This document shows, one piece after another, positions 4,051-4,095 of a stretch of 11,164 bases of DNA (the stretch's first letter is position 1; the number at the start of each line of letters is the position of its first letter). The position numbers and the translations under genes were made by a program. The DNA is from Octopus sinensis. Its lineage: Eukaryota. Under the pieces are notes generated by a model. That model worked only from the letters and a program-made list of their open reading frames with translations, ran no database searches and was not told the origin of the DNA. The DNA lies in the NCBI RefSeq assembly GCF_006345805.1, contig NW_021827082.1, forward strand, positions 1 through 11,164. Direction: 5' to 3'.

Positions 4051-4095
4051 CGCACGGACTGCAGTTTCTGGGTATTGACCAGTCTTCAGCGTACG
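4051..4095 (-). ncRNA. Minimal type I hammerhead ribozyme within a short Penelope/retrozyme-like fragment (about 4004-4124)
   Basis: Minus strand reads CGUACG-CUGAAGA-C-UGG-UCAAUAC-CCA-GAAA-C-UGCA-GUC-CGUGCG. All conserved core bases are present, with a 6-bp stem I, stem II, a 2-bp stem III with palindromic loop, and a GUC cleavage triplet. Confidence 0.8.

Follow-up and report, generated by a model that had tools for sequence, protein, structure and literature searches.

A damaged type I hammerhead in an octopus contig belongs to a retrozyme-like repeat family with Penelope-type insertion marks

The 11,164-nt contig NW_021827082.1 of the Octopus sinensis assembly GCF_006345805.1 (here, the window) carries a genuine type I hammerhead on its minus strand at positions 4051–4095, though one that is neither intact nor minimal. 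The motif belongs to a ~354-nt non-coding repeat with thousands of copies in the genome. The repeat occurs in tandem and inverted layouts, ends at two fixed 3' positions, is inserted in AT-rich targets, has no ORF shared among its copies and exhibits covariation in helices I and II; the window copy is visibly damaged. The window copy is interpreted as a truncated, point-mutated and likely inactive member of a lineage of non-LTR retrozymes. In this reading, which we hold with good confidence, dimeric transcripts of the lineage likely self-cleave, the products likely form circles, and a Penelope reverse transcriptase (RT) with a GIY-YIG nuclease likely copies them into AT-rich DNA. Several observations run against it: the subfamily of the window copy lacks the G10.1–C11.1 pair, is missed by Rfam and is older, and no helper was found among the Penelope elements compared.

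All the hammerhead letters are located where the original prediction had placed them, as established by a direct sequence check. On the minus strand, the 5' strand of proximal helix I (CGUACG) occupies positions 4095–4090 and is supported by pairing and compensatory changes. It is followed by the core CUGAAGA (C3–A9; 4089–4083, from sequence and pattern match), C (4082), UGG (4081–4079), GAAA (4068–4065), C-UGCA-GU (4064–4058), C17 (4057) and the 3' strand of proximal helix I, CGUGCG (4056–4051). GAAA, the 2-bp stem III, its palindromic UGCA loop and GUC together span 4057–4068, and the predicted cut between 4057 and 4056 agrees with the pattern match. The copy thus presents CUGANGA, GAAA and UH around three helices, with helix I open. 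Taken alone, the core pattern is borderline, weak evidence for a hammerhead. It matches the window once against 0.08 matches expected, and at least one match is found in 15 of 200 shuffles of the window. The Rfam Hammerhead_1 search that had been proposed as a check did not detect a hammerhead anywhere in the window (E ≤ 10). The 45-mer 4051–4095 folded singly has a z-score of −2.5, but its minimum-energy shape is not a hammerhead. The shuffles and the Rfam result speak for a chance match. That explanation is refuted by the family data and retains a negligible probability: a degenerate 33-place core pattern has 134 matches in the genome against 0 in the control, a loose core pattern has 3,369 against 75, and the helices covary. 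Because of this repeat-family evidence (family matches, core counts and covariation), the window motif stands far above chance.

A search of the octopus's own genome returned 2,303 candidates, 40 of which were scored and gave 43 matches at 92–97%; nearly all of these matches begin at the hammerhead start. Members of the family read GGUGAU-UGU-CGUACG-CUGAUGA-C-(G/A)GG-UCAAUA-CC(C/U)-A-GAAA-C-UGCA-GUC-CGUGCG-U-AUCACU. Helix I is extended by a distal part (GGUGAU/AUCACU) with a UGU bulge and an unpaired U. Stem II, (G/A)GG-UCAAUA-CC(C/U) flanked by C and A, has four positions and a hexaloop, and stem III has 2 bp capped by a palindromic tetraloop. Across subfamilies, an unpaired U that follows helix I and an A at the end of loop 2 are retained; they may form the reverse Hoogsteen pair between loops 1 and 2. 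Such a pair is described as conserved in hammerheads (PMC6155905). The ribozyme had been predicted to be minimal; with their extended helix I and 2-bp stem III closed by a tetraloop, the relatives are canonical type I hammerheads by the definition of canonical and minimal forms in PMC4209133. The repeat shares type I topology, a palindromic 15–16 region and predicted dimer activity with the minimal hammerheads of Penelope pseudo-LTRs (pLTRs; Cervera and de la Peña 2014, PMC4209133). In the latter, as described there, helix I is short and helix II long, one additional base lies between 9 and 10.1 and the G10.1–C11.1 pair is conserved, whereas the repeat has an extended helix I, a four-position stem II, no extra base and no attached ORF. 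Assignment to the minimal pLTR class was rejected, as the extra base, G10.1–C11.1, the missing loop 3 and a flanking RT-EN ORF were not found together with the motif.

At the window locus, the hammerhead lies in an inverted, 5'-truncated fragment of the monomer (4007–4097, minus strand) that corresponds to positions 93–183 of the reference monomer, the natural copy L006:1330-1683, with 96% identity by BLAST. The fragment is joined through an 11-nt filler (4098–4108; boundaries from BLAST to the reference monomer) to a 3' terminal tail of the same element in the opposite orientation (4109–4138, plus strand), which is 97% identical to reference positions q325–354. The filler repeats in part the CAGCGTA of the hammerhead arm and may be of templated origin. 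The tail ends where 58 of 121 free 3' ends of the family fall and abuts an (AT)n target microsatellite (4139–4160, plus strand; assigned from sequence), a context like that at many other 3' ends. On the other side, a SINE of repeat family D10 (3663–4003, plus strand), which we take to be an octopus tRNA-derived SINE, lies outside the element and ends short at the start of the fragment. No target-site duplication was seen at the window locus.

The window is a whole contig composed of SINEs, microsatellites and retroelement pieces. Besides the flanking SINE, copies at 1753–1900, 5002–5330 and 5835–5927 presumably also represent octopus SINE families. One minus-strand SINE is apparently split by a MITE-like insert at ~5620–5840 (by eye), and an inverted SINE pair (7714–7897 and 8197–8380) extends over 184 nt with 88% identity. 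A broken LINE 3' end is located at 9500–10185 (plus strand) with a weak zf-RVT match (E 0.001, below the cut-off), and two copies of this LINE's 3' end, at 9248–9436 and 10566–10932, are each followed by (TATC)n. At 2280–3420 lies a complex tandem array that is rich in CT, in which periods of 23, 143 and 288 nt are present.

Comparison with the relatives changes the register of stem II. The original prediction had read an extra C after A9 and a stem II that starts with a U–A pair (UGG/CCA). C4082 is position 10.1 and not an insertion, because sister subfamilies have G–C or U.U in the same two columns. C4082 and A4069 fill the 10.1/11.1 pair and form a C.A mismatch at the base of stem II, and the earlier reading was a register error. 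In the family register, stem II of the window copy is UGG/CCC with the hexaloop UCAAUA (4070–4081). This stem is supported by G–C/A–U covariation in the family, whose first stem II pair, examined by eye in the first 100 listed of the 134 core matches, is G–C in 66, A–U in 29, G–U in 2 and A.C in 3. The UGG/CCA alternative depends on U4081, a private change that breaks the G–C or A–U pair of the family and is found in 0 of 93 other copies.

The hammerhead fold of the window copy is weak in either register (−4.0 kcal/mol in the UGG/CCA register and −2.2 kcal/mol in the family register), compared with −12.6 kcal/mol for an intact copy. The pairing probability of proximal helix I is 0.15 in the window copy against 0.93 in the intact copy. 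The monomeric stem III reaches probabilities of only 0.00–0.04 in seven of seven tested sequences (0.00 in the window copy), and the ACUGCAGU palindrome is predicted to form an 8-bp intermolecular duplex of −11.1 kcal/mol. The description of the motif as intact does not hold, as the 5' strand of distal helix I was lost at the inversion junction. The 3' side (4044–4056, minus strand) consists of CGUGCG, the unpaired U (4050) and a distal strand AUCACU that has no partner. The alternative extended stem I (AUACG/CGUAU) that had been proposed is built from the junction filler. In total, 4 of the 91 positions of the window copy deviate from the most frequent letter, a level in line with neutral decay. 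A core-pattern scan of the whole window detected no second hammerhead of the same type. The window copy is therefore probably dead, given the private U4081, the lost distal helix I and the lack of a neighbour for dimerisation. An active window copy with a host role, such as the intron cutting that had been suggested, would draw on the intact core and on the alternative 3-bp stem II that the private U permits. It is very unlikely in view of the missing partner hammerhead and distal helix, the four changes, which are in line with neutral decay, and the repeat content of the 11-kb contig, on which no host exon was recognised.

The ribozyme is conserved among paralogues. In 23 subfamily A copies picked by the 3' body, and hence blind to the ribozyme, the core is intact in 17, proximal helix I is fully paired in 17, the 3-bp stem II is paired in 19 and the C.A pair is present in 21. 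For a wider comparison, 20 of the loose-core places were picked for variety from the first 100 listed and fetched. Ten of them match the monomer by BLAST at 68–87% identity, L134 and L135 are related to it by eye and by tree, and the remaining places are unrelated or unclear. The sister subfamilies, 68–87% alike, keep both parts of helix I, the four-position stem II and the palindromic loop 3 via compensatory changes. Double-sided changes give helix I pairs such as CACACG/CGUGUG and CCUGAA/UUCAGG, and loop 3 appears as UGCA, UCGA, CCGG or AUAU. Subfamily B swaps C3–G8 for U3–A8: the core of L105–L129 is UUGACAA, and L105 alone has C3–G8. The U3–A8 change is known from the Schistosoma Penelope hammerhead and as a core covariant of minimal hammerheads (PMC4209133).

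The covariation check that had been proposed on paralogues supports helices I and II; stem III is invariant and thus uninformative. Among 14 representatives, 85.7% of helix cells are paired, against at most 50.8% in slid registers, and 8 of 18 pairs are changed on both sides. The cell counts were reached by none of 500 shuffles and the both-sides pair count by 36 of 500, with rows that are related to each other. RNAalifold, unprompted, recovered both parts of helix I and stem II, with double changes in 12 of 58 pairs. All 12 core columns are invariant, against 115 of 256 other columns, a contrast that is partly circular because most subfamilies were found via the core pattern.

The tandem copies that the original prediction had suggested looking for exist in the genome as ~353-nt monomers; at the window locus there is just an isolated fragment. 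Units are 352–354 nt long with a G+C content of 0.42–0.44, tandem spacing is 349–356 nt, with many cores of a young subfamily 347–353 nt apart, and the position upstream of monomer position 1 is position 354 of the previous unit in 44 junctions. The median pairwise divergence is 8.2% in subfamily A, to which the window copy belongs, and 1.4% in the young subfamily. The latter contains 654 identical cores with a canonical hammerhead in tandem 353-nt arrays, for example at C1:105634457-105636603 (L194), with up to seven cores per array, and at C1:148255725-148258126 (L195), and is the best target for cleavage and circle assays. Monomers closed into circles in silico gave z-scores of −3.6 to −7.6 in six of the eight folded; the two aged units of a subfamily A array gave −1.6 and −1.0.

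These features assign the repeat, at the level of sequence, to the metazoan non-LTR retrozymes of the mussel and axolotl kind. Non-LTR retrozymes are recognised by a tandemly repeated unit of 150–450 bp that contains a single type I hammerhead, and the lineage has such units. Like the retrozymes of Mytilus (~350–390 nt) and axolotl (Rtz_331 and Rtz_353; Cervera and de la Peña 2020, PMC7229834), it has a ~353-nt unit in tandem, G+C below 50%, no ORF, a canonical type I hammerhead, a short stem III with a palindromic loop and a strongly folded predicted circle. For the mussel and axolotl elements, dimer cleavage, RtcB ligation and circles are reported and Penelope mobilisation is proposed (PMC7229834). 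Unlike them, the octopus repeat is known here from genomic sequence, has C.A at 10.1/11.1 in its commonest form and occurs mostly as 1–1.5-mers with Penelope-type tails and inverted arms rather than in long arrays. An axolotl form with U.U at the base of stem II (PMC7229834) resembles subfamily D. The repeat also resembles vertebrate retrozymes, described as non-autonomous Penelope derivatives (Li, Clavereau and Pollet, bioRxiv 10.64898/2026.07.22.740005), in that it co-occurs with Penelope-like elements and is present as a mixture of monomers, dimers and multimers. That work names only vertebrates, insects and one coral, and draws the retrozyme–Penelope link via pLTR homology (24 of 57 Xenopus families); among the Penelope loci compared here no homologous pLTR was found, and the insertion marks provide the connection. 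What distinguishes the octopus lineage from the mussel and axolotl kind is its lineage-wide C.A pair, together with explicit Penelope marks on a unit that encodes no protein.

Spread via linear multimeric transcripts, with circles playing no part and the hammerhead, above all in its C.A form, slow or dispensable, is an unlikely alternative. Insertion in vitro was unaffected in hammerhead mutants of an Anolis Penelope element (PMC11167929), and C10.1.A11.1 deviates from the most conserved pair after A15.1–U16.1 (PMC3088659). In the subfamily A array L104, which holds five direct cores and one inverted core, the direct units carry two haplotypes in alternation over four adjacent columns, which a single circle would not yield. 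Against the retrozyme reading itself, only one of nine predicted Xenopus retrozyme dimers is reported to cleave in vitro (bioRxiv 10.64898/2026.07.22.740005). Dispensability of the ribozyme is nevertheless at odds with the compensatory changes that preserved the core, the palindrome and helices I and II, C.A branches included, and with the double change from C3–G8 to U3–A8. Moreover, divergence within loci is about half of that between loci (0.9 against 2.0% and 3.6 against 8.0%), a pattern that fits repeated copying of one template but also local duplication. A depth skew 3' of the cut site, first seen in contigs of runs guessed (not recorded) to be RNA (14 such holders), was discarded as a sign of cleavage, as the same skew occurs in three large runs taken as DNA; contigs cannot reveal RNA ends, strand or circles.

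The mismatch at the base of stem II is a family trait. C.A occupies 10.1–11.1 in the window copy as in most of subfamily A, G–C is found in subfamilies B and C, and subfamily D has U.U. Genome-wide, 1,319 cores have C...A (control 2) and 755 have G...C (control 1), counted with patterns that leave out the U3–A8 subfamily. In a tree of 19 copies built from the sequence 3' of the ribozyme, C.A occupies most branches; G–C appears in two distinct groups, next to one of which U.U is placed. The tree is unrooted with 6 of 16 inner branches weak, and one of 20 picks, which has no core, was dropped. The distribution suggests that C.A may be ancestral in the lineage. The 10.1–11.1 pair is reported as the most conserved after A15.1–U16.1, with U.U noted as an exception, and the pipeline of the same study rejected mispairs at this position (PMC3088659). 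Rfam Hammerhead_1 (RF00163) scored six of seven cores in a G–C array at 32.2 bits (E 1.2e-4; gathering threshold 34) and returned no match at E ≤ 1 on the C.A and U3–A8 loci. No published report of the repeat family or of a C10.1.A11.1 hammerhead was found in a search of papers; the supplement of PMC7229834 and Lünse et al. 2017 may hold either. The main text of a 2026 Octopus vulgaris repeat annotation does not contain 'ribozyme', 'hammerhead' or 'retrozyme'.

The insertions exhibit the marks of Penelope-like elements. After removal of known duplicates, 86 loci of subfamily A provided 121 free 3' ends, which fall at ~354 (58), at ~305 (55) or elsewhere (8), so that the two 3' ends lie ~45–50 nt apart. 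A microsatellite or sequence of at least 80% AT is met by 46 of the 58 ends at ~354 and 43 of the 55 at ~305 (89 of 113 together), and both orientations are present in 35 of the 86 loci. In 12 loci of the young subfamily, the 22 free ends divide into 12, 9 and 1. Nearly all of them meet (AT)n, and in two-armed insertions the tail is often confined to a single end. A tail, an inverted copy and a (TA)n bias are marks of Penelope-like element insertions (PMC8557442), and the optional 3' tail, the inverted 5'-truncated arm and the AT-rich targets are all present in the repeat. Two reverse-transcription start sites were demonstrated for the Anolis Penelope element and match the two 3' ends of the repeat (PMC11167929). 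The repeat thus resembles endonuclease-bearing Penelope-like elements (Craig et al. 2021, PMC8557442; Frangieh et al. 2024, PMC11167929) in its partial tandems, inverted 5'-truncated arm, optional one-end tail, two start sites and AT-rich or (TA)n targets; unlike these, it has a tail of ~45–50 nt rather than 30–40 nt and encodes nothing. The proposal of a retrozyme- or Penelope-related family with a type I hammerhead is borne out by the tandem ~353-nt monomers, the four palindromes, the Penelope-type ends and the lack of an ORF. At L195:3875-4153 and L104:3680-3982, the inverted arm is unlike the direct units at several columns, which suggests that these arms were copied from a second template molecule.

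A linked helper was not recovered. The linkage to RT/GIY-YIG ORFs that had been put forward for checking was not borne out: no linked partner was found. Three young Penelope families in the genome have open frames of 781, up to 1,009 and 811–850 residues, with a Pfam RT in all three and GIY-YIG in two. When 32 + 25 loci drawn from these families and from some older ones were compared with the monomer, no similarity was detected (best E 1.6 and 0.14); the comparison covered only a fraction of the genome's Penelope families and set aside two loci holding retrozyme insertions. Potential helper elements are therefore available in the genome as these three open-frame families, apparently without sequence shared with the monomer. 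A 5.3-kb tandem on C23 was also rejected as a helper. It is a segmental triplication (C23:6085000-6098000, L041–L043) of 98% identity that includes three retrozyme fragments.

The tail, inverted arms and (AT)n targets, as in Penelope insertions, and the partial coverage of Penelope families leave some room for the repeat being merely the pLTR of an autonomous Penelope-like element, with copies that are 5'-truncated ends and no independent retrozyme cycle. This explanation is quite improbable. It conflicts with the 44 unit-to-unit junctions and the arrays of up to seven cores, and with a canonical hammerhead whose extended helix I is unlike the minimal pLTR type. Adjoining Penelope ORF pieces are few and lack pLTR-style joining; the remnants beside L008/L047, L045, L046, L022 and L057 were rejected as partners, being broken, of different families and devoid of the repeat's hammerhead.

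Other Penelope elements carry motifs of their own. L187–L193 represent a young Penelope-like family with a 781-residue RT + GIY-YIG frame that is located in (AT)n and has its own short tail; two copies have a 479-residue frame upstream, and no hammerhead was found by the core pattern. In the third young family (L214, L216 and L218), a U3–A8 hammerhead-like motif with a 7-bp helix I lies ~130–150 nt after the ORF. The window itself contains, at 6810–7029 (plus strand), a solo end-repeat of a young Poseidon-like Penelope element followed by (AT)n, with 83–87% identity to both ends of L209 and L212. Its motif, CUGU(U/C/A)GA-A-GAGC-GUAG-GCUC-GAAA, is minimal-hammerhead-like, and U replaces A at core position 6 in 16 of 16 occurrences (loci and window). 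Its activity is doubtful, or else it may represent a core variant.

In the retrozyme reading that we favour, read-through of tandem copies would produce multimeric RNA, in which two hammerheads would pair via the 8-nt palindrome and cut after GUC. A host ligase of the RtcB type would close the monomer into a circle, as in axolotl and mussel retrozymes. A Penelope protein would then nick (AT)n DNA, and reverse transcription would begin at q~305 or q~354. Copying round the template would yield one to seven units, often accompanied by another arm in the opposite orientation. In the window, the direct arm would have halted after 30 nt. The inverted arm, which covers only q93–185, could have been primed inside the element, or a deletion at a later time could have trimmed it together with the end of the SINE.

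A bolder combination of claims is possible, and we offer it tentatively: that octopus retrozymes actively form circles, that C10.1.A11.1 is catalytic, invisible to Rfam and the standing state through most of the lineage's history with G–C regained twice, and that a Penelope two-start tail and arms from different templates occur with no helper homology. If this reading of the C.A lineage were true, Penelope proteins would mobilise unrelated ribozyme circles via structure and not sequence. More than 1,300 C.A cores are missed by Rfam; if they are active, surveys that reject core-adjacent mispairs undercount animal hammerheads.

The window copy alone is ordinary debris, and the significance sits with the lineage. 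The lineage would extend non-LTR retrozymes to a cephalopod-type genome, and its young subfamily offers a ready test case for circles. Penelope mobilisation of animal retrozymes is still hypothetical; the insertions described here bear the tail and inverted-arm marks directly, and because they do, an in vitro helper test is well defined.
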